A stretch of 64,000 nt of DNA from a virus (lineage: Duplodnaviria; Heunggongvirae; Uroviricota; Caudoviricetes). Positions 7,876-47,451 of the stretch are shown piece by piece. Made by a program: the position numbers and the translations under genes. The stretch is from the IMG/VR virus record IMGVR_UViG_2579778842_000003; one strand, written 5' to 3'. The stretch's first letter is position 1. Each line of letters starts with the position of its first letter. A model generated the notes under the pieces. It was not told where the DNA came from. It saw only the letters and a list, made by a program, of their open reading frames with translations, and ran no database searches.

Positions 7876-10800
7876 ATGGAAAGAAAAAACGCCAACATTG
7901 ACGATGTGATAAGGACGGTTGAAACCGCCAGCGCAAAAGAGCTGGAAGAGCTTGCAGGTATTCGGGAAGCCGTTGAAGATTTGAAAGGTGGGCGAGTTGC
8001 TACAGTTGATCCTGTCTCTCGCAGTGTGTCGGCATTAAATCGCACAATCGAAAATTCCCGGCCAGACTTTGTGGCCAATGCGCCATCAGTGGACCCTATT
8101 GTTGAGGCAATGAAACGGCTTAATTTAGGGGACGTTTCTCGTGTAGTTCAGGAGGATGTTGCTCTACAGGAACCGCAGGCCAAATCAACTACGCGAAAGG
8201 GTAAAAAACGACGCAAGAAGGCTATAACAGAAGATGTAAAGGCGCAACGGACCGAAGCAGCCGAACACGCTCGCGAAATGTTCGGTCAAAAAGGCGGTGC
8301 GCAAAAAAGCCAAAACCAACGCGATGCGCGTGGTCGTTTTATTGGAAAGTCAGGGAGTAAGGCCGCAGCGGAAGATGCCCGTGCTGAACGTGCTGAAAAG
8401 GCCAGGCGCAAAGAGGATGATGAGCGTCTAAATGCTGAATCAGGTTTATTAAAAAAACTGTCAAAAGTAGCTGAAGGCATAGGTAACCCTTCAGAGACTC
8501 GTGCCGTCGATGCGTTAGGTTATGCCGTTGCTGGTCCATTGTGGGCAGCAGGGAAGGAGCTTGGCGGGATATCAAAAGAAGTTGGTGGATCGCTTAATGG
8601 TGCCAGAAAGTCTATTGCCGATGTGATTCGTGGCAATGACGATAACAGCCGTAGAAAAGGTTTTTTTAGGCGTAAATCGCAAAATAGTGCCGATGTCGTT
8701 CAGGTTAACACCCAAAAACGGACGGTTCAGGAACTTCAGGAGCAGACCAGCGAAATTAAAGAGGGCAATGACAAGATTCTCCGTGCCCTTGATCAGATAG
8801 CCAAAAACACCGGGAAAAAGAAGGGCGGCTTGCTGTCCAAACTATTTAGCCTGTTAGGGAAGGGGGCCGGTGGCGTCGCGTCGTTGTTAATGGGGCGTGG
8901 CATGCTGAAAAAAGCTGGAGCACTCGCTTTTGGCGCTCTGGGGGCAAAGAAACTTGTAGGAATGCTACGCGGTGGTGGCAAGAAGACTCTCGCCCATGAA
9001 GGCGGAGATTTGGCTGCCCGGGCAGCAGGTAAACTTGGATTAAAGGCAGTTGGTAAAGGGGCGTTACGCGCAATTCCCCTAGTCGGCACAGTGGCTGGAG
9101 GTATTTATGATGCGGTAACCGGTTGGAATGATACAGAAGCGCAACGTCGAGCGTTTGGGCTTAAATCAGGACAAGATCCATCATTCCAGCAAAAAGCCGC
9201 TTATACGTTAGCTAATGTTCTTGATATGGGGGGACTGGTATCTGGTATTAGCAGCGCCATTGGTGAGGCTCTCAAATCACTTGGATTTGAGGATATCGGC
9301 AATATGTTGCAATCATTTTCGACGGAAAGTATTGCCCAGGCCATTGATAGTGGGATTACCAACTTAGAAACATATATTTCTAACCTTGGCGACACCATTT
9401 CTACCAAGTTCGATGATTACACAGCAAAGATTGGTGATGCTGTTTCAGCATGGTTTAGCGATACATCTAATAAGTTGCTTGAAAAGCTGGATGCCATAAA
9501 AGACTTCTTTACTGTCGATAACCTGAAACAGGTTTTCAGTGATGCAATTGATAGTGTAATTGACTTCATTAAGAACCCAGGGAAACACATTAAAGAGGCG
9601 GCTGGTAATATTTGGGATGGGGTTAAAAATTTACCCGGTAAAGCATTAGATGCAGCGGTTGATGCCGTTAAAAATACCCCTGCGGCAATGATTGTATCAA
9701 AAATACCCAATCCGATCGGCGAGGCTAATGCGAAAGAAATCACTCCAGAGTTAAAAGCTCCGGTTAATAGCCACCAGGAGACGTCTAATTCTAAAACTGA
9801 ATCCGATGCCAAACAGAGTAATATTGCTACCCGCGTGATAAATGCGGCACTGGACACAGCGAAAGATAGCAATAAAACAGTTAAACAAACTGCCAATCAG
9901 ATTATCAATGCAAATGCCGTAGAAACGGGCAATAGCGCGTTGCAGAAAATTGATAAAGCTATTGGTCAAAATAGCTCGTCATCATCCTCGCTTAATACCA
10001 CTGGCACCAGGAATGACATTCAGAAAGCTGCGGATACCTACAATAATGGCAACTTGGATGTAAAAGTCGGAAGTCTTGGCGCTGAAGGTAAGGCAAATCT
10101 CGATAAGTTGGCTCCGTATTTTGCTGAACTAGAGAATAAATATGGCCTTCCTGAAGGTACTCTTTACGCGATCGCTGCAACTGAATCTGGTGGTGATCCT
10201 AACGCAAAATCTACGCTTACAAGATCACCAAATGGAAAGCTAAGTGGTGGCGCTCTCGGAATGTTCCAGTTTACGAGCGTTGCTCGTGAGGAAACTGGAT
10301 TATCCCGGGAAGATTCTTTTAATCCGGAAAAATCGGCAGAAGCTGCGGCTCTTCTCATGAGCAAGTATCTGAAGCAAGCCAATGGAGACTTAAACGAGGC
10401 CATCACTGCATATAACGCTGGGTTTGGCACTATCAATAAGTGGAAAAAAGGCACAGGTGACTTATCGAAAGAAAACCGTGAGTACGCGATCAAGGTCAAT
10501 ACTCATCGTGCTCGCTATTTAGGTGGTGAAATCTATACACCTGGAGCAGGAGCACAGGGTGGGGCGCAATATGGAGTGAGGGGACCACTGCCTGATAACG
10601 CTGTTATCGATCAGTCTACTGGCTTGGCGTTTACCCCTGGTGATAGCCCGTTTGAGAAAGGCGGTCTGGTAGACAAAATCGGCAATGCTGTTGGCGTTAA
10701 CGATCTGGTCAACAAATTCATGAATGGCCGGGGTATGCGTCGGGAAGTCGTTCAGGGAACGCTCGAAGAACGTGCGCGAGGGAAGGGGACCGCAACAGCA

Positions 10801-35523: not shown

Positions 35524-38500
35524 ATGAACAAGCTATCTATTGGGGTGTTTCGCTGTTCAAGTGTCAGCGAAATATTGAAATACATTAGGGCAATAACATC
35601 TCACCGAGCGCCGATTAAATACGGCGTGGAAAAGGTGGAAGGCAAAAGCTATGACCGACTGCGCCGGGAGGCGAATCAGAAGGCGATAGATTTGCTTAAT
35701 TCACTGGTGGACAGCGCGACACTGACAGATGAACAGCGCCAGATCCTGGCTGGGTACACCGGTGAAGGCGGCATTGGCGGGTCCGTCTCCGAATATTACA
35801 CACCAAAGCCGATCGCTGAAGGTGTCTGGGAGATCATGAAGCTCTACGGCGCGGACGTAGGTAACACTCTGGAACCATCGGCGGGCACCGGCGTTTTTAA
35901 TGAGACAAAACCGGTTGGTACGGTGATGACTGCGACTGAGATCAGCAGTGTTTCCGGTCGTATAAACCAGTTGTTACACCCGGAAGACAGCGTACAGATT
36001 TCCCCGTTCGAACAGCTGGCTATAAGCACACCTAACGATTCATTCGACCATGTTGTGGGTAACGTTCCGTTCGGCGGTCGTGATAACACACGCAACATCG
36101 ATAAGCCTTACGCAGAAGAAACGGACATGGGTTCTTACTTCATGCTCCGCATGCTGGACAAGATAAAGCCAGGCGGATTCATGTGCGTGATTGTGCCGCC
36201 GTCCATTGTTTCAGGTTCAAACATGAAGCGGTTACGCCTGCGCCTATCACGGAAAGCAGAATTTCTTGGTGCCCACCGCTTGCCTACCGGTACTTTTGAC
36301 GCAAACGGGACCAGTACGGTCGTAGATGTGGTGCTGATGCGCAAACATCCGGCAGAGATGGCTGAGAAAATCCCCCTGGTGGATGAAAGCACTCTTGAAT
36401 CAGCAAATGTGCTTTGGCCAACGTTTATTTCTGGCAAGTGGTTTGAAAAGGATGGCCGCCGGTTTGTTCATGGCACCCAAGAAAAGGGCTTCCGGGGGCG
36501 TATTGAGGTTCGTGCCGACGGTCAGATTGATAACCAGGCTCTTAAAGCGAAGCTGATTCATCGTTTCGAAAGCCGTATCGACTGGTCTTTGCTCGATATG
36601 GCTGAACCGTCACCGACCGCAGACGTTGTTGGTGAAGGGGAAATGCGCCTGATTAATGGCGTATGGCAAAAATATGCTGGTGGTCGCTGGATTGAAGCTG
36701 ATGCCGGGAAGGAACTTAAGATCGATGCTGCCAGTTATGGCGCGGATAGCTGGGAGGCTCTTCAGCGTAACCTGACTACAACAGAAGGCCGTCTCGGTAT
36801 GACATTTACCCAGATGGCAAATGTCCGCGATAAGTACACCACATCAATCAGCGACGATATGGTGCAGCTGGTGGACTGGATTAACAGCCAGCCTGAAAAA
36901 TACCGTGAACGCTTGTATCGCGGGGCGATGATTGGCCGGATGTTAATTGAATATCAGGATATGAAGGCCGCCGGGCATAGTGCTGAACAAATCGAACAGC
37001 AGCGCCTTTCTCTGGTATCCCGTTTGCAGGCAGAGATTGACCGTTTTGGTAACCCCGGTCGCGGTCCGATAGCGAAATTATCGGGGAGCGGTGCGCGCGC
37101 CTGGTTTGCTTTCCGTGGTGCAATTAAGCTGGATGGCACTATTTCTGACGAGCTGACAGGAAAACTGGTTACGCATGATTCCAGCGCCAGTTATGACTCC
37201 ACCAGCTATCAGGACACCCTGCGTTATCTCTACAGTGATCTCACTCGCGATCCAATCCAGCTCGATGATTTCCGCCTTGCGTTTACCGGCGAACTGCCAG
37301 CCAGTGATGATGAGTTGCTTAATTTATTGGCCAGCACCCCTGGCATTGCGGTTTCACCGTATGGCGGGATTGTTCCGTTCGCCCGCGCCACCAGCGGCGA
37401 CATTAACGAGATAGTGGCTCCAAAACAGGAATTCCTCGCCACGCTCCCCGACGGTCCAGTAAAGAACAACGTCCTTAATCAGCTGGCAGCGATCGAAGAG
37501 AAGCGCATCAAGACGCCAGCAGAGAATATCCGCTTTAAGCTCAATAGCCGTTGGTTCGACCGTTCCGTCATTCTGGAGTTTTTGCAGGAAAACGGCTATC
37601 CGGATCTGCGCTATGTGCAGTCAGTGCAGCTGGAAGGCGACGAAATGGTTTCTGACACCTATCACGGTGGTGATGGCCTGTTCGTCGGGCACCGATACGG
37701 TGTCGTCCAGCGCAAGGATAAAGAAACAGGCGAGATCCGCTACGAGTGGGACCGTAAATCAGGAGAAAACGCGACCGGGTTCCCGGCACAGCTGGAAAAG
37801 TATCTCAATGGTGCGCGTATCGGTGGCAAAGATAGCGCGACGGCGAACGGCTATCGTGAGCAGATGGCACTGCTTGAGGACCAGTTCAATAAGTGGATCA
37901 AGACGCACGATCGCTACGATGAGCTGGTTGCCAAATACAACGATGTGTTCAATAGCAATATCCCGTATGAACACTCTGGCGATCCGCTTGGGTTGAAGGG
38001 ATTAAGCGGTAAGCGCCAGCCATTTGATTACCAGAATAGCGAGGTGCGCCGACTGTCCGAAGATGGGCGCGGCATCCTGGGCTTCGGTACCGGGCTGGGT
38101 AAAACCACGACCGCGCTGGCGCTTGAGACGTTCAACTATGAGAACGGTCGCTCCACCCGTACTGCTTATGTAGTGCCTAAATCAGTGCTGGAAAACTGGT
38201 ATTACGAAGCAAAAGAATTCCTGAGTGAAGAGGCATTCAGTAACTACCTGTTCGTCGGTCTTGATGTGCTGATGGATGGCGATCAGATTCGCCAGGTGCC
38301 GGTGCTCGATGAGAACGGTAAACCTGTTCTTGGTACTGATGGCACTCCAGTTATGCGCGATGCTCTTAAGCTGGCAGATGAAGCCACTATCACAGCGCGG
38401 ATGAACGCGATCCCGCACTCAAACTACCGTGCAGTCGTGTTTACCAAAGAACAATACGCCCGCATTCCGCTACGTGATGACACCGTAGATGAGCATGCAC

Positions 38501-41500
38501 AAGACATGCTTTATGACTTCGTTGCCGCCGGGCGCGTAGCCAGCGCAATGGATTCCGACTCCCATCGTAAAGAGGCGGCGCGTCGCTGGGTATTGTCGGA
38601 GTATTCAGATACCGGTACCGAAAAAGCAGAGAAGTATCCGTACTTTGAGGATATGGGCTTCGATAGTGTGATCGCCGACGAAGGTCACAACTACCGCAAT
38701 AGCTATAAAAATGGTCGCGAAGCGTCACAACTGGCCTATCTGCCCACCAGCGCGGTGGCGCAATCGGCGCGGGATATGGCAATCAAAAACGCGTACCTGA
38801 TGAAAAAGAATGGCGGGCGCGGGCCGGTTCTCCTGACTGCAACGCCAGTCGTTAACACCCCGATCGATGCATACAACATGCTTTCTCATGTTCTGCCGAA
38901 GGAATACTGGCAGAAGATGGGGATCTACGGTCCTGATGACTTCGTTAAATTCTTCGGCAAGACCAGGCTGGAAACGGTACAGAAAATCAGCGGTGAAGTT
39001 GAAGAAAAAATGGCGCTGGTGGGCTTTGAAAACCTTGATGCGCTGCGCGGTATATTCCATCGCTGGGTAACGCTTAAAACGGCGGAAGACGTTAAGGATA
39101 CCGTGGAGATCCCGGAACTGGACGAACACCAGCAGGATGCACCACTTACTGAAGAACAACTGGCGGCGTATGAAGAATTGCGTCAGCAGGCGGAAGCGGC
39201 GGCCAAAGCCAACAATGGTGTAACGACCTCGGTCAATGAAGACGGCGTGATTGAGCACGAGAAAGCCCGTCCGATCTTCTCAATAATCAGGGATATGGAC
39301 CGCGTATGTACTGACATGGACCTGTACTATCGCCGGATCACCTATCGTTTCCTGCCGGAGTACGCCGATGCGGTGCAGCAGCTGGCGGACAGTTTGCCTA
39401 AACAAGCCACCAGCGAAGACGACGACAGTGATGATTCAATCACGCAGCAATCGCAATACTCCCTGATAGATAAGGGCGAGTTTATTCAGTTGCAGGTTCC
39501 GGAAGCGTTCGAGCAGGAAGTGAATAAGCGCCTGGCCAGGTTTGGCATTGACGAACAGACCGTAACTCACCCCGTTACGCCGAAATACGCGAAGCTGATC
39601 GCCACGCTGAAGGAGTTTTTCCCGGAAGGGAAGCAAATCATCTTCACCGACGAAAAAACGCAGCACCAGAAGCTCAAGCGCATTATCTGCAATGCTCTTA
39701 ACCTTGAACCTTCAAAGGTAGGGATCCTGAATGCTCAGACTGTTGCCGAGGCAGGTAAAACCGGTAAGAAACTGAAAGCGGTTAAACCGCCGAAAGAGTT
39801 ACCGGATGAACCAACAGATGCACAGATAGCGAAATACAACGAGCAAATGGCTCTGTATGACGCCTATATCGCGCAGCAAAATGAAATGTCGTTGGGCGGT
39901 CTGGAAAAGATTGCAGCCGACTTCCAGGAGGGCCGGACTCCGATCATCATCTGCAACAAAAAGGCAGAGGTGGGTATCAACCTGCATCGAGGAACGACTG
40001 ACATCCATCATCTGACGTTGCCATGGACACCAGCCAGTATCGCACAGCGTAACGGTCGCGGTGCTCGAGTTGGCTCCAACCGTGCAAGCGTTCGCGTTCA
40101 CTACTACTGCGGCAAGGGGTCTTTCGATGAATACCGATTGAAGACGCTGAAGCGTAAAGCAGGCTGGATCTCCGATATCCTCCGTTCAGATAAGTCGGAA
40201 ATGGAGAACGCCGACGCCAATGACATGATCGAAATGCAGATGTATACCGCGAAGGATGACGGCGAACGTCTGGCAATGATGCAGGTTCAAATGGATAAGG
40301 CGAAAGCTGCGAAACGCGCTCGCCAGAAAGAACAGGCTACTATCGACCTTCAGAATTACATCAAGGCGCAGCACGCAGCTGGCGAGGATGTGGAGGTACT
40401 TACCGCTGAATTAGAGCGAAGCAAAGCGGAACTTGAAAAGACCACCGCCGAGGTAGCTAAATTCAAACAGGCGGTAATGGCCAAAGCAGCTGATAACGCA
40501 GACTGGAAAGCCCGCTGGGGTAGCGTCCATCACACAGACCGTACGTTGTTAGCACAGTATCGCGCGTCGTTGAAAAGCGCCATTCAGCGCAAGGCTAATA
40601 TCTCTCAGGCCATCTCCCGCTATGAGAAATTATTGAACCGTACTCAGAAGGCCGCGACGGATATCAAACGCCTGCGCCCGCTGGTGGAGGATGCAATAAA
40701 TAAAGGCATTCTGGATGTTGATCCTGATCTGGTTAACCATGCGAATGAGTTCCTTGTTATCGGCGATCGCTCATGGCGTGTAGGCCAATACTACGATTGT
40801 GCCGGTGATATCGTTCGCATTAAGTCGCTGGACTTCGACAGCCAGCGCGCAGACGTGGAGATCATCTTTACCTTAAGAGGCACCAAATCGGGTAACTGGG
40901 ATGTGAAGACGCTGGATAAACAGGTGGATGTAACTCCCGATGAAGATGCTGTTATGCAGAAAATCAGTGGTGGCGTCTCCATCGCCGGGATTAACGACAT
41001 CATTTCCTGTGACGATTTCTACCGTTTCCAGCAGCGCGGCATGATCAAAATCACTGACTCGTACGGCGTTCAGACTACAGAGTCAGGCTATAGCATTGAT
41101 TTTGTTGGTACCTATACGGACCCACTGAAGCATGCGGTTTACCCGGATCGCCGTGACGGCGCGCTGAAGTCGTCAATTGCAAAATGGGTGCTTGGTATGA
41201 TGTCGGAAGGGAATAACCGCCAGATCCGTTCGGCAGAAACATTCCTGGTTGAATTGTTTGGCTCCAATTATGGCGATGTAATCGCGTCATACGGAGATAC
41301 GCTATCCCCTGAAGCAATTCAGGAGAAAATAGCGGATGCGATCGCCAGAATGCCGGAAAAAACAAGCCAGGGGTCTACTCGTAACGGGGATTCTGAACTT
41401 GAAGTCACCAATGCCATTTTCGGTACCAATGAGTTCCGGGCGTCAGATTATGAGATCACCACAGCACAGTTTGGCACCATTGGCATTTACAGCAATAAAG

Positions 41501-42291
41501 ACGAGATCAAGCAGGCAATGGACGCAGCAAGTGCGCGCATTGCAGCAGAACGGAAAGCCAATCTGAATCATGCAGTCGCCGCGCTGACTCAATCGTGGGT
41601 AACAGCAATCAGGGAGGCCGCCACCACAGGAAAAATCACACCGGCAATTGCGGATGTCGTAAACGACGGCTCTAAATTTATGGATGCCTATAAAATGGAT
41701 GCGGTGCAGTTGCCATCAGTCTATGGCCAACTCAGCTATCGCATGACCTACAACCTGGTATCAATGTTTACTGACCTTGCCATCCTTGGGCTGGTGGACC
41801 TTAACGAGGTTACGCCGGAATTACTCAGCATGCGCAAGAATCATGTTGAGATATTGCAGAGAATTAACACGGTTCTTGCCGGGCGCACCGATGAAGAGAA
41901 ACAGGCCGACGCTGATCGGATAAACCTGGCCCTAGGCAACATCACGGAGGAAGAAATTGCCGCCAGAAACGAGAAACAAGAAGAGTTATCATCAATACAG
42001 GGTGATGCCACCAGCATAGCTCAGTCTCTTGGGCTGAATTATCGCGTATCCACCGCCGACCTGAAGATGATGTACGCACCAAAATTCGCCGCTGGCGAGG
42101 TATTTGGGCTTCAGGAAGCCTCCGGCATGAAAGGGGTTCTTTTCCGTGCGAAAGACGCAATCAAGGCGAAATTCGGCGCTCGCTGGTTGCCAGCGAAGGC
42201 GAAGAACAGCGATTTCCCGGGTAACTGGTGGATTATCGAGACAAAACACAACGTGGCGGACGTTCTGGCCGTCATCCAACAATACGCATAA
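35524..42291 (+). CDS. darB: DarB, giant virion anti-restriction protein (N6-adenine methyltransferase plus SF2 helicase domains)
   Basis: 2255 aa, the size of P1 DarB; methyltransferase motif GNVPFGG; helicase Walker A LGFGTGLGKTTT and DEGH box VIADEGHNY. Confidence 0.9.
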   Translation: MNKLSIGVFRCSSVSEILKYIRAITSHRAPIKYGVEKVEGKSYDRLRREANQKAIDLLNSLVDSATLTDEQRQILAGYTGEGGIGGSVSEYYTPKPIAEGVWEIMKLYGADVGNTLEPSAGTGVFNETKPVGTVMTATEISSVSGRINQLLHPEDSVQISPFEQLAISTPNDSFDHVVGNVPFGGRDNTRNIDKPYAEETDMGSYFMLRMLDKIKPGGFMCVIVPPSIVSGSNMKRLRLRLSRKAEFLGAHRLPTGTFDANGTSTVVDVVLMRKHPAEMAEKIPLVDESTLESANVLWPTFISGKWFEKDGRRFVHGTQEKGFRGRIEVRADGQIDNQALKAKLIHRFESRIDWSLLDMAEPSPTADVVGEGEMRLINGVWQKYAGGRWIEADAGKELKIDAASYGADSWEALQRNLTTTEGRLGMTFTQMANVRDKYTTSISDDMVQLVDWINSQPEKYRERLYRGAMIGRMLIEYQDMKAAGHSAEQIEQQRLSLVSRLQAEIDRFGNPGRGPIAKLSGSGARAWFAFRGAIKLDGTISDELTGKLVTHDSSASYDSTSYQDTLRYLYSDLTRDPIQLDDFRLAFTGELPASDDELLNLLASTPGIAVSPYGGIVPFARATSGDINEIVAPKQEFLATLPDGPVKNNVLNQLAAIEEKRIKTPAENIRFKLNSRWFDRSVILEFLQENGYPDLRYVQSVQLEGDEMVSDTYHGGDGLFVGHRYGVVQRKDKETGEIRYEWDRKSGENATGFPAQLEKYLNGARIGGKDSATANGYREQMALLEDQFNKWIKTHDRYDELVAKYNDVFNSNIPYEHSGDPLGLKGLSGKRQPFDYQNSEVRRLSEDGRGILGFGTGLGKTTTALALETFNYENGRSTRTAYVVPKSVLENWYYEAKEFLSEEAFSNYLFVGLDVLMDGDQIRQVPVLDENGKPVLGTDGTPVMRDALKLADEATITARMNAIPHSNYRAVVFTKEQYARIPLRDDTVDEHAQDMLYDFVAAGRVASAMDSDSHRKEAARRWVLSEYSDTGTEKAEKYPYFEDMGFDSVIADEGHNYRNSYKNGREASQLAYLPTSAVAQSARDMAIKNAYLMKKNGGRGPVLLTATPVVNTPIDAYNMLSHVLPKEYWQKMGIYGPDDFVKFFGKTRLETVQKISGEVEEKMALVGFENLDALRGIFHRWVTLKTAEDVKDTVEIPELDEHQQDAPLTEEQLAAYEELRQQAEAAAKANNGVTTSVNEDGVIEHEKARPIFSIIRDMDRVCTDMDLYYRRITYRFLPEYADAVQQLADSLPKQATSEDDDSDDSITQQSQYSLIDKGEFIQLQVPEAFEQEVNKRLARFGIDEQTVTHPVTPKYAKLIATLKEFFPEGKQIIFTDEKTQHQKLKRIICNALNLEPSKVGILNAQTVAEAGKTGKKLKAVKPPKELPDEPTDAQIAKYNEQMALYDAYIAQQNEMSLGGLEKIAADFQEGRTPIIICNKKAEVGINLHRGTTDIHHLTLPWTPASIAQRNGRGARVGSNRASVRVHYYCGKGSFDEYRLKTLKRKAGWISDILRSDKSEMENADANDMIEMQMYTAKDDGERLAMMQVQMDKAKAAKRARQKEQATIDLQNYIKAQHAAGEDVEVLTAELERSKAELEKTTAEVAKFKQAVMAKAADNADWKARWGSVHHTDRTLLAQYRASLKSAIQRKANISQAISRYEKLLNRTQKAATDIKRLRPLVEDAINKGILDVDPDLVNHANEFLVIGDRSWRVGQYYDCAGDIVRIKSLDFDSQRADVEIIFTLRGTKSGNWDVKTLDKQVDVTPDEDAVMQKISGGVSIAGINDIISCDDFYRFQQRGMIKITDSYGVQTTESGYSIDFVGTYTDPLKHAVYPDRRDGALKSSIAKWVLGMMSEGNNRQIRSAETFLVELFGSNYGDVIASYGDTLSPEAIQEKIADAIARMPEKTSQGSTRNGDSELEVTNAIFGTNEFRASDYEITTAQFGTIGIYSNKDEIKQAMDAASARIAAERKANLNHAVAALTQSWVTAIREAATTGKITPAIADVVNDGSKFMDAYKMDAVQLPSVYGQLSYRMTYNLVSMFTDLAILGLVDLNEVTPELLSMRKNHVEILQRINTVLAGRTDEEKQADADRINLALGNITEEEIAARNEKQEELSSIQGDATSIAQSLGLNYRVSTADLKMMYAPKFAAGEVFGLQEASGMKGVLFRAKDAIKAKFGARWLPAKAKNSDFPGNWWIIETKHNVADVLAVIQQYA

Positions 42292-42324: not shown

Positions 42325-42765
42325 ATGGCCACATTATCTGATACAATAAAACCGAATAAAACATATCTTGAGGCGGTGCTGCGTACGGCGTTGTTAGGAA
42401 AGACAGAAGACGAATACGTTGATTTCTTCCTGTCAGGGCTACGCGGGCGATTACTGAAAAATCCCCGCCTGTACCGCAGTTATGGCCCATACTGGCCGGA
42501 AATTAAAAAATTATTACTGGAGCGCGGTTATGGTAATTTCGGTCGTCTCGTTGACCGTGACGTTCGCAAAATTTACCGTTATGACCGCCCGGCGCTGACA
42601 CTCATAGCCGCGACGCTCTACAGCCAGGAGCGTTTTGATAATGGTCAGATATACTCAGCCTGGCATTTACTGCCAGTGCCTGAAGAAGTTGACGACCAGG
42701 ACTATGAGTTTGAGTCTTACGATTTGGAAGTTGAAGCCTTGGCACAGGCTGGAGAGAAAACTTGA
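42325..42765 (+). CDS. ulx: Ulx
   Basis: 146 aa upstream of and overlapping lxc; synteny. Confidence 0.6.
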   Translation: MATLSDTIKPNKTYLEAVLRTALLGKTEDEYVDFFLSGLRGRLLKNPRLYRSYGPYWPEIKKLLLERGYGNFGRLVDRDVRKIYRYDRPALTLIAATLYSQERFDNGQIYSAWHLLPVPEEVDDQDYEFESYDLEVEALAQAGEKT

Positions 42766-43010
42766 AAAAGCGATACTACACAGTAAAGCATGGGACGCTA
42801 CGAGCATTACAAGAGTTTGCTGACAAGCATAACGTTGAGGTGCGCAGGGAAGGGGGAAGTAAAGCTCTGCGTATGTACCGTCCGGATGGGAAATGGCGTA
42901 CGGTCGTCGATTTCAAAACTAACAGCGTTCCCCAGGGCGTCCGTGACCGGGCATTCGAAGAATGGGAGCAGATCATCATAGATAACGCATTGCTCCTGAA
43001 TGCTGATTAA
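42762..43010 (+). CDS. lxc: Lxc (modulator of C1 repression)
   Basis: 82 aa; position downstream of darB-ulx. Confidence 0.6.
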   Translation: MKKRYYTVKHGTLRALQEFADKHNVEVRREGGSKALRMYRPDGKWRTVVDFKTNSVPQGVRDRAFEEWEQIIIDNALLLNAD

Positions 43011-43011
43011 T

Positions 43012-43046
43012 TTATCGGGCAGTTTTATCTGCCCGATAAATTTTTA
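43012..43046. terminator. Bidirectional intrinsic terminator at the cargo boundary
   Basis: ttatcgggcag-tttt-atctgcccgataa followed by a T-run; separates lxc from the convergent SIR2 gene. Confidence 0.7.
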
Positions 43047-43056
43047 TCGACCACAA

Positions 43057-44364
43057 TTACACTATATTCTTAACTATAAGGTTGGCGTCCTTCAAGGTGC
43101 CTAATGTTTCAATGTGGTTTTTTATCATTAATCTATTTGAGGCAATTATTGCAGGCCATCGTGTTTCCCAAGCTCTGTAAGCATACCAAGAAACTCCCCA
43201 ATTCCTTTCTTTACTCATATGACCCATCGAGTATTCAACTGCGTCTAAATATGTTTTTTCATACTTAGTATTGCTAACCTCTATGATGCTTCCAAAATAT
43301 ATAAGCCATTTTGCCAACTGTTCATATTGCTCCCACGCTCCGTTATTCCTTGTTAACTTTCTCTTTTTTTCTATTATCCTTTCGAAAAGAGAAACGACTT
43401 TATCATCATTCCAATCTAAACCTTCCGATATAATTGATGATATAATTTGATAAAATGAATCCTCTAATTTAAGATATTCATTTTTATAAGTATAAGCCCC
43501 CGAAACAACTTTTCTGATATTTTCGCGCGCTCTTTCAATGATGTCTTTAATGAGAGACATCTTATAACTTAATCGACTAAAGAAACAATCTATTTCTGTA
43601 TTGTCAATTACCCTTATACCAAAGCAATAGAAGTAATAATCCTTCATATCTTGACTTACTTTGTTGCGAGATATCAAAAAGATATTAGAGCACAGGGCAT
43701 TATTTTTCGAAAATTTTTTATAGTCATTTATAATTGCTTTAAGATTTGTGTCGCTTAAAGAATACCCTAATATCGCAACTGTATTTTCATGCAGCATCGT
43801 ACTAAGTTTTCGTGAAAAATAAGTATCGGAATTTATAAATCTGAAGTAATCATCTGAAGTGACAATCATATTTTTTGGCGAATCAATAGAGCCATGAACA
43901 TGATATATTTTCACCTTGGATGGATACTTTGGAATTGGCAGGCCGGGCGTGATAGACTGTACACTTTCATCTCCAACCAAGCATTCAGCCAACTTGTCAT
44001 AATTTGTTGTAATGACACGGAATGAGTTTTTTTGGAAAAAATCTTTTATATTTGATATGTCTTCTCCAAGTTGAATTGGAGATATGATGTCAACAATTTC
44101 ATCATAAATCGACTTACCCTCAATATTGAGCTTCAAAGATAGTATTTGTGCGGCTTCTTCAAGACTCAGTGCTGGTGGTTTATCATCAGGGAATAACGTG
44201 TCTTCCAACTTTTTGGCATTGTGAACTTTGCTGCAAACTTTTTTTAATAGTTCCTTCCACGTTGGAGCTTCACCGTTCGAGACTGCCTTTGAAAAGCCAG
44301 TCCCGGTAAATAGACAAAGCCTGCTTGTAGCGGCAGCGTATGCTAACTCAACATATTCGCTCAT
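43057..44364 (-). CDS. SIR2-like (sirtuin-fold) protein with uncharacterised C-terminal helical domain; candidate anti-phage NADase
   Basis: 435 aa. Motifs read directly: LFTGTGFS (GAGxS-like, residues 18-25), ITTNYD (residues 118-123), HVHGS (155-159) and ILGYSLSD, with N121/H157 spacing like ThsA-type SIR2. Gene is markedly AT-rich compared with its neighbours. Confidence 0.8.
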   Translation of the reverse strand: MSEYVELAYAAATSRLCLFTGTGFSKAVSNGEAPTWKELLKKVCSKVHNAKKLEDTLFPDDKPPALSLEEAAQILSLKLNIEGKSIYDEIVDIISPIQLGEDISNIKDFFQKNSFRVITTNYDKLAECLVGDESVQSITPGLPIPKYPSKVKIYHVHGSIDSPKNMIVTSDDYFRFINSDTYFSRKLSTMLHENTVAILGYSLSDTNLKAIINDYKKFSKNNALCSNIFLISRNKVSQDMKDYYFYCFGIRVIDNTEIDCFFSRLSYKMSLIKDIIERARENIRKVVSGAYTYKNEYLKLEDSFYQIISSIISEGLDWNDDKVVSLFERIIEKKRKLTRNNGAWEQYEQLAKWLIYFGSIIEVSNTKYEKTYLDAVEYSMGHMSKERNWGVSWYAYRAWETRWPAIIASNRLMIKNHIETLGTLKDANLIVKNIV

Positions 44365-44420
44365 TACTTACTCCATTTACTTATAGTTCTATGGAGAAGT
44401 ATACCCTAATGCATTGACGT

Positions 44421-45062
44421 TTATAGATAATTTCCTTTTCCAGTTAACTCCCCTTTAGGCACCCGTTTTTGTGCCAGTGTTTGGGTTCCGCGAATTATGT
44501 TAATCAGAGGGCTTAGTAACGATGATTCCTGGCGGGCATCAACTTCTCCTGCCATTGCCCTAATGTAGTCGGCGCTTGCAACGTTGTTATATTCCGTTGC
44601 GAAGCAGCATAACAACGTCAGAACGTGCTCTGTCGTTATTTCGCTCCAGTTGATGTTGAAAAATTCATCGCCTTTTTTGTCATGTTCGGAATCGAAGATG
44701 CTTTGGTGAAGGATGTATTTGCCGGATTCCTTGCGCGGTAACTTGATCGCTTTCTGGCGTTCCAATTCCTTGTAAATCTGCATCGCTTCAATCAGTACCG
44801 GTCTGCCGTTCATGAAGGGATCACGCAACCTTACACGCTGGCCAACTCGACCGGTAATAAAGCTGTTTTCCTCTTCCACCAGCACGATAAAACCCTTTTC
44901 CTCTTTTTCTCGCAATTCGCGCAGCAGCTGGAGTTCCATATCGCGGCGGCGTTCAGGGTAGCTGGTCCGCTCAGCCATTATCAGCTCATTGTTGATCCAT
45001 GCGGCAGTCATTGACGCCGGTTTGCCGACGCTCATCGAAACAACGCATATTTTCTTATCCAT
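44421..45062 (-). CDS. mat: Mat-like protein (particle maturation control)
   Basis: Synteny only (between ref and the res-mod position); start taken at MDKKICVV. Confidence 0.45.
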   Translation of the reverse strand: MDKKICVVSMSVGKPASMTAAWINNELIMAERTSYPERRRDMELQLLRELREKEEKGFIVLVEEENSFITGRVGQRVRLRDPFMNGRPVLIEAMQIYKELERQKAIKLPRKESGKYILHQSIFDSEHDKKGDEFFNINWSEITTEHVLTLLCCFATEYNNVASADYIRAMAGEVDARQESSLLSPLINIIRGTQTLAQKRVPKGELTGKGNYL

Positions 45063-45250
45063 AGCGCCCCTACAAAAAAGAAAAGCCACCAGCGGCGGCT
45101 TAGCAATACAACTGAAGGTAGCGCCCGGTACTCAGACTGTGCCGTCCATGGAATATTTGAAAAGGGATCCATCCGTACCGGGCGTGTGATGATTCTGACT
45201 GAAGTCACTTGTCAGTTGTCAATCATTTATCATTAAAAATAATATATTTA

Positions 45251-45811
45251 TTAGTGCATAATGTTTGTCATCTCATAGGCGTCAGCCAGTAACTCCATCT
45301 CTGACTTGTTCAGCAGGGTGAATTCTTTCTTGCCTCCAACCACACCATCGGCATGAACAGGGACCAGCCAGGGGTATTTTGCTCTTACTTCAGTCGGTGC
45401 TGCATGCTGGTGGTGCCATCTACAAAGTGGCAATTGCTTTTTATGACAACCCGGCGCAGTACGACCGGCGATATGGTGCAGAGACACCTCATTAGATATT
45501 ACTCCATGCATATAGCAGGCAATGCAGGGGAGAGTGCCAAGAGCATTGGCGATGCGCCGTTCCTCCGCCGTTGGTGTTCTCCCCTTCAAGCCACGAGATT
45601 TTATTTTTACCGCGCTTTTCCGCGTTTTGCTGGCTGGTGGGCGCTCTTTCTGTTTAGCGATACGGCGGTCGATAGTATCCCGCATTTTCTGATATTGAGA
45701 TTCTCGCCAGACCGGATCAGCCAACTTCTCCCGTTGCCGAGCGATCGCTCGTTCTCTGGCTGCCTTCTGCCACTTGCGGCACTGTTCAATTTTTTGTTCG
45801 ATTGTTTTCAT
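45251..45811 (-). CDS. ref: Ref, HNH-family recombination enhancement endonuclease
   Basis: 186 aa; starts MKTIEQKIEQCRKWQKAARER; HNH core CIACYMHG...LHHIAGR...CRWHH. Confidence 0.9.
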   Translation of the reverse strand: MKTIEQKIEQCRKWQKAARERAIARQREKLADPVWRESQYQKMRDTIDRRIAKQKERPPASKTRKSAVKIKSRGLKGRTPTAEERRIANALGTLPCIACYMHGVISNEVSLHHIAGRTAPGCHKKQLPLCRWHHQHAAPTEVRAKYPWLVPVHADGVVGGKKEFTLLNKSEMELLADAYEMTNIMH

Positions 45812-46033: not shown

Positions 46034-46059
46034 CCTGACTCCTTGCCAGGCTTTTTTTT
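46034..46059 (+). terminator. Plus-strand intrinsic terminator
   Basis: gcctg-actccttgc-caggc followed by T8. Confidence 0.5.
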
Positions 46060-46369
46060 ATTTCATCATGGAAGCTGTTAACGCTTTGGACCTTGCTGAA
46101 CTGATTGAGAGGGCTTTGTCAACGTGCCCCAAAAATTCGCCAAACTCAGACATCACTTTAGCAAAACCGCGCCGTGCTTCTTCCTCGGTGGCATTCATCA
46201 CGAAATGTTCAGCACCACGCATACTTTTGACAGGGAACGCAACGGATATTGAATCAATATCAGGCATTCTATCGCTCAGCTTTACAGTGACAATGACGGC
46301 TGGCGACTGAATATTAGTGCTTACAGACAGCACTACATATTTTCCGTCGATGTTGAAATCCTTTCTCAT
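46058..46369 (-). CDS. Hypothetical C1-controlled protein downstream of cre
   Basis: 103-aa ORF with a C1 operator about 20 nt upstream of its start. Confidence 0.5.
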   Translation of the reverse strand: MRKDFNIDGKYVVLSVSTNIQSPAVIVTVKLSDRMPDIDSISVAFPVKSMRGAEHFVMNATEEEARRGFAKVMSEFGEFLGHVDKALSISSARSKALTASMMK

Positions 46370-46419: not shown

Positions 46420-47451
46420 CTAATCGCCATCTTCCAGCAGGCGCACCATTGCCCCTGTTTCACTATCCAGGTTACGGATATAGTTCATGACAATATTTAC
46501 GTTGGTCCAGCCACCAGCTTGCATGATCTCCGGTATTGAAACTCCGGCACGGGCCATATCTCGCGCGGCTCCGACACGGGCACTGTGTCCAGACCAGGCC
46601 AGGTACCTCTGGCCAGAGTCATCCTTAGCCCCGTAAATCAATCGGTGAGTTGCTTCAAAAATCCCTTCCAGGGCGCGAGTTGATAGCTGGCTGGTGGGTG
46701 ATGGCGAGGCAACACCATTTTTTCTGACCCGGCAAAACAAGTAGTTATTCGGATCATCAGCCACACCAGAGACAGAAATCCATCGCTCGACCAGTTTAGT
46801 TACCCCCAGGCTAAGTGCCTTCTCTACACCCGCGGTACTAACCAGCGTTTTCGTTCTGCCAATATGGATTAACATTCTCCCACCGTCTGTACGTGAGATA
46901 TCTTTAACCCTGATCCTGGCAATTTCGGCTATACGTAACAGGGTGTTATAAGCGATCCCCAGAAATGCCAGATTACGTATGTCCTGGCAGCGATCGCTAT
47001 TTTCCATGAGTGAACGAACCTGGTCGAAATCAGTGCGTTCGAACGCCAATGCCTGTTTTGCACGTTCACCGGCATCAACGTTTTCTTTTCGAATCCGCCG
47101 CATGACCAGTGAAACAGCATTGCTGTCACTTGGTCGTGGCAGCCCGGACCGACGATGAAGCATGTTTAGCTGGCCCAAATGTTGCTGGATAGTTTTTACT
47201 GCCAGACCGCGCGCCTGAAGATATAGAAGATAATCGCGAACATCTTCAGGTTTTGCGGGAAACCATTTCCGGTTATTCAACTTGCACCATGCCGCCCATG
47301 ACCGGCAAACGGACAGAAGCATTTTCCAGGTATGCTCAGAAAACGCCTGGCGATCCCTGAACATGTCCATCAGGTTCTTGCGAACCTCATCACTCGTTGC
47401 ATCGACCGGCAATGCAGGCAAATTTTGGTGTACGGTCAGTAAATTGGACAT
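46420..47451 (-). CDS. cre: Cre tyrosine site-specific recombinase
   Basis: 343 aa, MSNLLTVHQNLPALPVDATSDEVRKNLMDMFRDRQAFSEHTWK..., recognisably P1 Cre; adjacent to loxP. Confidence 0.97.
   Translation of the reverse strand: MSNLLTVHQNLPALPVDATSDEVRKNLMDMFRDRQAFSEHTWKMLLSVCRSWAAWCKLNNRKWFPAKPEDVRDYLLYLQARGLAVKTIQQHLGQLNMLHRRSGLPRPSDSNAVSLVMRRIRKENVDAGERAKQALAFERTDFDQVRSLMENSDRCQDIRNLAFLGIAYNTLLRIAEIARIRVKDISRTDGGRMLIHIGRTKTLVSTAGVEKALSLGVTKLVERWISVSGVADDPNNYLFCRVRKNGVASPSPTSQLSTRALEGIFEATHRLIYGAKDDSGQRYLAWSGHSARVGAARDMARAGVSIPEIMQAGGWTNVNIVMNYIRNLDSETGAMVRLLEDGD

Follow-up and report, generated by a model that had tools for sequence, protein, structure and literature searches.

Among the anti-phage proteins described so far, DSR2 (defence-associated sirtuin 2) of Bacillus subtilis (PDB 8k98, 8wkt and others) is the one to begin with. 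It is a single protein, forming a tetramer, with an N-terminal SIR2_2 domain that degrades NAD+ (an NADase) and a C-terminal alpha-solenoid of HEAT type, and that solenoid is reported to bind the phage tail tube protein (PMC11850899). The protein considered here is built on the same plan. Its gene lies between lxc and mat in IMGVR_UViG_2579778842_000003, a stretch of 64,000 nucleotides (nt), called the window below, which is part of a P1-like phage-plasmid. Conceptually the protein, a SIR2 domain followed by an alpha-solenoid, is DSR2 in miniature: it has 435 amino acids (aa), whereas DSR2 has roughly 1000 to 1200, with a MID and a large C-terminal domain, and the similarity between the two is confined to the SIR2 domain. 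I propose that the gene probably encodes a stand-alone, compact, DSR-like protein that aborts infection by phages or other mobile genetic elements, and that it is carried as a moron in a hotspot of P1-like elements, the variable region RD-1. The protein most likely represents a compact new relative of the DSR anti-phage sirtuins.

The enzyme is the more familiar half. The N-terminal domain belongs to the SIR2_2 superfamily (Pfam PF13289; aa 117-252, 84.3 bits against a cut-off of 24.5, E = 1e-23). The four SIR2 hallmarks listed in the first-pass annotation of this stretch are all confirmed, LFTGTGFS at 18-25, ITTNYD at 118-123, HVHGS at 155-159 and GYSLSD at 200-205, as are N121 and H157, and three motifs (GTGFS, TTNYD with N121, and HVHGS with H157) do not vary when 50 homologues are aligned. 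The counterparts of N121 and H157 in DSR2 are N133 and H171, and H171 is the site of the mutation carried by the deposited DSR2(H171A) structures, so the catalytic Asn and His of an NAD+ pocket are in place. Among PDB sequences, DSR2 gives the best match through its N-terminal SIR2 domain (E = 4e-10, aa 14-282), and it is also the top Foldseek match (E = 6e-12) of the AlphaFold model of the full protein, which has a predicted local distance difference test score (pLDDT) of 81.5. KomC and ThsA are among the closest SIR2 structures as well. As modelled, then, the domain sides by fold with the clade of defence NADases (KomC, ThsA, Avs5, DSR2), not with the deacetylase sirtuins.

In current RefSeq/PGAP the protein is called 'SIR2 family NAD-dependent protein deacylase', probably a misnomer, because it has no Zn-ribbon cysteines and its structure is closest to those of defence NADases; neither a Zn-binding Cys4 module nor the closest fold match places it with the CobB/Sir2 deacylases. 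The name does speak for a different reading, one in which the protein is a deacylase or an ADP-ribosyltransferase of macromolecules, brought by its solenoid to some target of the host, a phage or a plasmid, and serving in defence, as a toxin or addiction factor, or in manipulation of the host. ADP-ribosyltransferases are known among the sirtuins, and for the sirtuins of phages DNA, RNA or proteins have been suggested as substrates (PMC9503650). Alpha-solenoids are typical scaffolds for the recruitment of substrates or partners, and the res-mod genes that P1 carries in the same slot have been counted among plasmid addiction systems (PMC6906374). Set against the resemblance to defence NADases, this reading is rather unlikely.

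The C-terminal 180 aa are the more peculiar half. They are all helical and modelled with confidence as an alpha-solenoid, and fold class is all that they have in common with the C-terminal domain of DSR2. Nine residues (W344, Q346, Y347, W353, W393, W399, W403, N410 and R411) do not vary among 50 sequences, and conservation here equals that of the enzyme core. This region had been described from the sequence as helical, free of SLOG-like glycine motifs and of transmembrane segments, and without a match to any known sensor, and the description holds up in every part. G-x-G and CxxC motifs are both absent from the domain, hydropathy within it reaches a maximum of only 0.86, giving no sign of a transmembrane segment, and comparison with Pfam and with PDB sequences returned zero matches, including none to domains of SLOG, STALD, Macro or CARF type. 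A profile of the domain, run against 1.84 billion representative proteins, found just 97 clusters. Every full-length match was a protein of 430-470 aa with the domain at about 255-435, always behind SIR2, and those shorter matches that were inspected start inside the SIR2 domain or where it ends, as truncated fragments would. Since the profile found it only behind SIR2, the solenoid is taken to be specific to this family, and the idea that it has been shuffled onto other effectors is rejected at this level of detection.

How would such a protein work? I infer each step of what follows, from expression in the lysogen and NADase activity, through the nature of the trigger and oligomerisation, to the abortive outcome. 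The lysogen would express the gene under its own promoter and leader. The SIR2 domain of the protein would be a latent NAD+ glycohydrolase, held off by the solenoid, which would also sense an infecting phage by one of its components, a protein being the likeliest. Once the trigger is bound, a conformational or oligomeric change would turn the NADase on. Activation is probably by way of oligomerisation, because close SIR2 structures (KomC, ThsA, Avs5 and FAM118B) have been deposited as helical or filament assemblies. NAD+ would then be depleted and the infection aborted, to the benefit of the clonal population and of the resident P1-like element.

The model calls for a protein that acts by itself, and the first-pass annotation had taken the gene to stand alone, with no TIR, HerA, Argonaute or STAND partner beside it. 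None adjoins it in the cassette or its flanks. When the neighbours of the gene were clustered over 58 loci, no gene family turned up in more than three of them, and those few at varying distance and orientation; because no neighbouring family recurs, the gene is taken to work alone. A hidden two-gene system is rejected on the same clustering and on an all-against-all comparison of possible partners (the small same-strand upstream genes of Halomonas and Pseudoalteromonas, together with mat, lxc and ulx of P1), which found no similarity. The immediate neighbours are a mixed lot: type I restriction-modification, dGTPase, NERD+UvrD, AbiD, PD-T7-1, PD-T7-5, HamB, mad3, TIR-like proteins, integrases and resolvases. 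In Halomonas the homologue sits in a defence island, among HNH, DUF4145, HSDR_N, DUF87 and STAND-like genes, and in Photobacterium, in another, where PDC-S31-like and TIR/PDC-S66-like proteins flank it. On E. coli chromosomes a 59%-identical paralogue (P0010; positions 8001-9311 of loci L003-L007) closes a lambdoid prophage; it comes immediately after int and borders on narP/ccm.

The family is wide as well as uniform. At least 685 relatives are detectable, strongly fixed in length at about 434 aa, from Gamma-, Beta- and Alphaproteobacteria, Desulfobacter, Actinobacteria, a Melainabacteria-like metagenome-assembled genome (MAG) and Treponema (33% identity). PHROG 7567, which has no annotated function, is matched over its full length (1-434 of 434, E = 5e-247) and is the family itself. 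The gene is patchy and accessory in its distribution: 141 of 5426 complete E. coli genomes have it (about 2.6%), and 136 of the 146 places where it occurs are plasmid-borne. One of the plasmids is unnamed3 of E. coli W25K (NZ_CP091040.1), typed as IncY, which is 100% identical to the window over the 3-kb region around the gene and, by tblastn, to the protein over residues 1-435.

If the protein acts alone, to what known system might it belong? The claim that it does not fit Thoeris, SIR2-HerA, pAgo-SIR2, AVAST or the DSR proteins is borne out by profile scores and coverage. Membership in the PD-systems of Vassallo, DSR, ThsA, LmuA and PDC-S25 was considered and fails in each case by coverage or score. 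There is no adjacent HerA-like ATPase, as in SIR2-HerA (Nezha, or Gao_19), and no STAND NTPase domain after SIR2, as in Avs5 (AVAST type 5). ThsA has a C-terminal SLOG domain and is paired with ThsB (PMC9503650); PADLOC labels its ThsA models STALD. ThsA profiles match the SIR2 core alone (aa 118-236), and the locus offers neither SLOG/STALD nor ThsB; over the family, TIR-like proteins are near the gene at isolated loci only. KomC, of the Kongming system, has 264-278 aa and was solved inside the KomBC complex, whereas the protein at hand has no recurrent partner.

One might still picture an effector of the ThsA or KomC sort, whose C-terminal domain binds a second messenger from a sensor or synthase encoded elsewhere, upon which SIR2 depletes NAD+. 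KomC and ThsA were deposited with nucleotide ligands (by entry title, BcThsA with gcADPR and KomBC with dITP), and the invariant aromatic and polar cluster of the solenoid might form the wall of a ligand pocket. In Photobacterium the second gene downstream encodes a TIR protein, and a single ThsB-like neighbour appears in a survey of 103 neighbouring proteins. Against this, no partner recurs over 58 loci, and the gene is swapped among P1-like elements as a cassette of one. The solenoid resembles no ligand-binding domain of the SLOG, STALD, Macro or CARF kinds, and the TIR protein of Photobacterium matches another single-gene candidate, PDC-S66. An effector of this sort is improbable. The neighbour that matches ThsB1 could not be pinned to a locus; a search by motif and PADLOC led to a different TIR protein (L024).

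Then there is LmuA. The PADLOC profile for this protein of Lamassu systems, 433 positions long and so nearly equal in length to the protein, matches over positions 14-238 (aa 13-241, E = 5e-16), which is the SIR2 half and no more. Perhaps the gene is an orphan or remnant of a multi-gene system, a Lamassu LmuA-SIR2 effector or a fragment of a DSR, either inactive by itself or in need of chromosomal partners like LmuB/C. In one study a Lamassu-family system was predicted in three of four E. coli O157:H7 genomes, and an SMC-like gene lies near the homologue of Paracidovorax. No SMC/LmuB neighbour is present at the other loci, however, and the SMC-like neighbour that Lamassu membership calls for does not recur. 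The fixed length of about 434 aa, the invariant residues in both domains across many phyla, and a ratio of nonsynonymous to synonymous substitution rates (dN/dS) well below 1 favour an intact, self-sufficient protein. The remnant is very improbable.

The proposed compact DSR-like protein must also be seen in the light of where its gene is found. An anti-phage role is supported by context only: the hotspot shared with EcoP1I and CapRel, the defence islands and the prophage end. In the window the order is darB (+), ulx and lxc (+), followed on the minus strand by the SIR2 gene, mat, ref, c8 and cre. The first-pass annotation had drawn attention to the interval 43011-44420 as the position where P1 carries res and mod, and the interval between lxc and mat in the P1 reference does hold them. 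The coordinates 43011-44420 delimit a real cassette, because backbone homology, in pairwise alignments, ends at 43010, the stop codon of lxc, and restarts at about 44425-44436, at the stop codon of mat. Four relatives served to set these borders: RCS47, where the site is empty, SJ46, P1, and an element with an allele of 58% identity. The one AT-rich gene of 435 aa that had been noted is there, with an ATG start, and so is the contrast of composition with the backbone. The G+C content of the cassette is 0.347, against 0.514 in the left flank and 0.481 in the right, and at third codon positions the SIR2 gene has 0.33, where the backbone genes darB, cre and mat have 0.51-0.58. The IS1 that had been placed in the P1 interval is not to be found there: the reference has IS5 at this site, and IS1 sits in another variable region, RD-2 (PMC6906374).

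What else occupies the slot? In P1 it is the EcoP1I type III res/mod pair plus IS5, and in RCS47 nothing, just 39 bp between lxc and mat. In SJ46 it is a 373-aa RelA/SpoT protein (L093 1249-2370, minus strand) that matches the 373-residue chain of PDB 7ztb ('RelA/SpoT family protein') from end to end (E = 1e-250). This is CapRel^SJ46, an experimentally validated fused toxin-antitoxin of defence, for which a phage capsid protein is the direct trigger (PMC9712102). It shares with the SIR2 gene the slot, the orientation, the single-gene form and the possession of a terminator of its own, and it is alike in logic, with a toxic enzyme at the N-terminus and a regulatory region, in our case a presumed sensor, at the C-terminus. 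It differs in that its enzyme is a toxSAS of the RelA/SpoT family, of unrelated fold and with zero sequence similarity. Across 703 P1-like plasmids from PLSDB, the slot carries SIR2, RelA/SpoT, YaaC, PIN, DUF2971, EAL+HTH, GNAT or DUF4145 genes, or nothing. The full-length SIR2 gene is on about 124 of them, roughly one in six, and in the slot it is exchanged among P1-like elements as a one-gene cassette. The slot was reported in 2019 as a low-GC variable region, RD-1, with no defence interpretation and no mention of SIR2 (PMC6906374). Because of three of its occupants, EcoP1I, CapRel and the SIR2 family, I read it as a defence hotspot; in sister elements it houses systems whose part in defence is proven, and the earlier suggestion of such a hotspot comes out the stronger. 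PADLOC-DB v2.0.0 (2023) lists CapRel^SJ46 only as the candidate PDC-S33, so PDC labels in that release can hide systems that have since been validated.

Not every gene in the slot has an obvious role in defence, EAL+HTH and GNAT being cases in point, and many chromosomal neighbours of the family are housekeeping genes. It might therefore be argued that the SIR2 gene encodes an accessory enzyme of metabolism or regulation, say an NAD-linked regulator of lysogeny or of host physiology, which happens to ride in a recombination hotspot. Against it, the SIR2 domain is of the defence-NADase clade, and the gene is found with defence genes and at the ends of mobile elements. Two validated defence systems use the slot, the gene is patchy and plasmid-borne, and its non-catalytic domain is mosaic and evolves fast. 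A non-immune enzyme is quite improbable.

That last point bears on the proposed sensor. Three groups of SIR2 alleles, with amino-acid identities of at least 99%, about 84-86% and about 58%, share the slot and the orientation. Even in the 58% alleles (L002 and L094) there is near identity over the 56-nt leader and some 27 initial codons (44285-44420, minus strand), and this points to intragenic recombination or to a shared regulatory leader. Compared with the 86% allele, identity is 99-100% over aa 1-110, 92% over aa 111-255 and 68% over aa 256-435, and dN/dS rises from 0.05 for the SIR2 half to 0.15 for the solenoid. The gene is thus a mosaic relative to that allele, and its C-terminal domain diverges fastest. 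At the level of sequence, the pattern is what one would expect of a conserved effector coupled to a sensor that diversifies and recombines.

A number of observations weigh against the idea of a compact DSR-like defence protein. The protein satisfies none of the curated defence models. The NCBIfam Dsr2 equivalog model NF041819 gives 22.6 bits, in the SIR2 core only, and the Dsr1 model NF041818 gives 26.2 bits over aa 112-209, each against a cut-off of 1400 bits, so the protein is a member of neither DSR2 nor DSR1 as these are defined. The best PADLOC match lies elsewhere, with PDC-S25 (PHROG 2695), which is likewise a stand-alone SIR2 protein (about 450-570 aa) with a non-SLOG C-terminal region, itself a computational candidate only; in the literature searched its sole mention is in a genome-annotation list. 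That match, at E = 1e-26, covers only profile positions 127-289 of 517, whereas true members give E = 1e-79 to 1e-142 over about two-thirds to nearly the whole of the profile. The protein does not have the C-terminal domain of PDC-S25 and falls short of the high coverage of PDLC04968 and PDLC04967 that membership would entail. A dN/dS well below 1 in the solenoid means that both halves are still under purifying selection. The candidate promoter of the gene is weak by consensus, many chromosomal neighbours are the housekeeping genes already mentioned, and no publication on the SIR2-solenoid family was found in the literature searched. Finally, a sensor of abortive infection carried by a temperate phage must escape being triggered by the lytic cycle of its own carrier. 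How it would do so is a question that the model raises and for which I offer no explanation.

It is tempting to go further, and I do so tentatively, with rather more doubt than conviction about the whole: the solenoid could be a hitherto unrecognised, self-contained phage-sensing module, making the protein the smallest single-chain receptor of the DSR type; the allele groups could have different trigger specificities; and the slot could be the P1 counterpart of the P2/P4 defence hotspots, with further single-gene candidates (YaaC, PIN, DUF2971, EAL+HTH, GNAT, DUF4145). If active, the compact DSR-like protein would be a minimal SIR2 NADase of immunity, 435 aa as against about 1000 for DSR1 and DSR2, with a sensor-like domain that has no relatives outside its family, on an element that is a genetically tractable model. 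The allelic series, with its common leader and SIR2 half and its divergent solenoids, lends itself to the study of how evolution and recombination shape the specificity of a sensor. Immunity by single-protein SIR2 NADases is already known and not a new category. The conceptual picture of SIR2-based immunity would stay as it is. The value of the locus is mainly as a compact, tractable experimental lead and as a short list of other single-gene candidates for defence in the lxc-mat hotspot.

What of expression? The gene has a GGAG Shine-Dalgarno sequence at 44374-44371 (minus strand), 6 nt upstream of its ATG. The candidate promoter given in Table 1 is a hybrid: its -35 element, TTAACT, lies inside the coding backbone of mat, and its -10 element, TATAAA, straddles the junction of backbone and cassette, overlapping the mat stop codon. 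The -35 element reads TTAACA in the other two SIR2 allele groups. Ahead of the gene, a promoter scan under strict criteria reported no site. The window contains nine sites that resemble the C1 operator (ATTGCTCTAATAAATTT, with up to 3 mismatches), where 0.4 would be expected by chance. Control of the SIR2 gene by a C1 operator is rejected, since these sites are neither in nor beside the cassette. The Shine-Dalgarno sequence, the candidate promoter and the lack of a nearby C1 operator make expression in the lysogen plausible.

At the other end of the cassette, the terminator described in the first-pass annotation as bidirectional is so only in part. The hairpin (43009-43042) is real, with a free energy of -22.9 kcal/mol and a z-score of -7.3, and a T-run comes after it on the plus strand; on the minus strand what follows is UUAAUC, a poor U-tract. 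Different types of cargo in the slot each have a distinct hairpin of their own.

Table 1. Features at and around the lxc-mat slot, with the C1-operator-like sites, in coordinates of the window
Feature	Position	Strand	Remarks
C1-operator-like sites	2606, 4267, 31729, 35578, 47947, 48030, 48494, 52767, 63969		
darB	35524-42291	+	left backbone
ulx	42325-42765		left backbone
lxc	42762-43010	+	left backbone, flanking the cassette
Convergent terminator hairpin of lxc and SIR2 gene	43009-43045	+	14-bp perfect stem, 6-nt loop, T-run; belongs to cargo
Variable cassette in lxc-mat slot (RD-1)	43011-44424		AT-rich (G+C 0.347); set by homology breakpoints and composition
SIR2 + alpha-solenoid open reading frame, 435 aa	43057-44364	-	identical to RefSeq WP_032167077.1 'SIR2 family protein'; PHROG 7567
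HEAT-like alpha-solenoid, aa 256-435	43060-43599	-	family-specific; presumed sensor
N-terminal SIR2_2 (Rossmann) domain, aa ~1-255	43600-44364	-	
Leader, 56 nt	44365-44420	-	almost identical across all three SIR2 allele groups
Candidate sigma-70 promoter TTAACT-N16-TATAAA	44420-44447	-	read by eye from the sequence
mat	44421-45089	-	right backbone flank; 213 aa as annotated in relatives
ref	45251-45811	-	beyond mat, minus-strand block
c8	46058-46369	-	beyond mat, minus-strand block
cre	46420-47451	-	beyond mat, minus-strand block

A few neighbourhoods of the family deserve a word of their own. Homologous proteins of about 1050 aa lie directly beside the SIR2 gene in Massilia (L029 2792-5962) and in a Treponema MAG (L061 7331-10468); they are probably the two type I restriction R subunits of the neighbour survey. 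In Paracidovorax avenae (L012 10335-14278, minus strand) a 1135-aa protein and a 189-aa open reading frame resembling AAA_23/SMC_N lie about 1 kb downstream, on the opposite strand; the pair, seen at this one locus, may be a separate defence system of the SMC type. In some strains of E. coli, an AIDA-type autotransporter is interposed between the 59% paralogue and the host narP/ccm genes.

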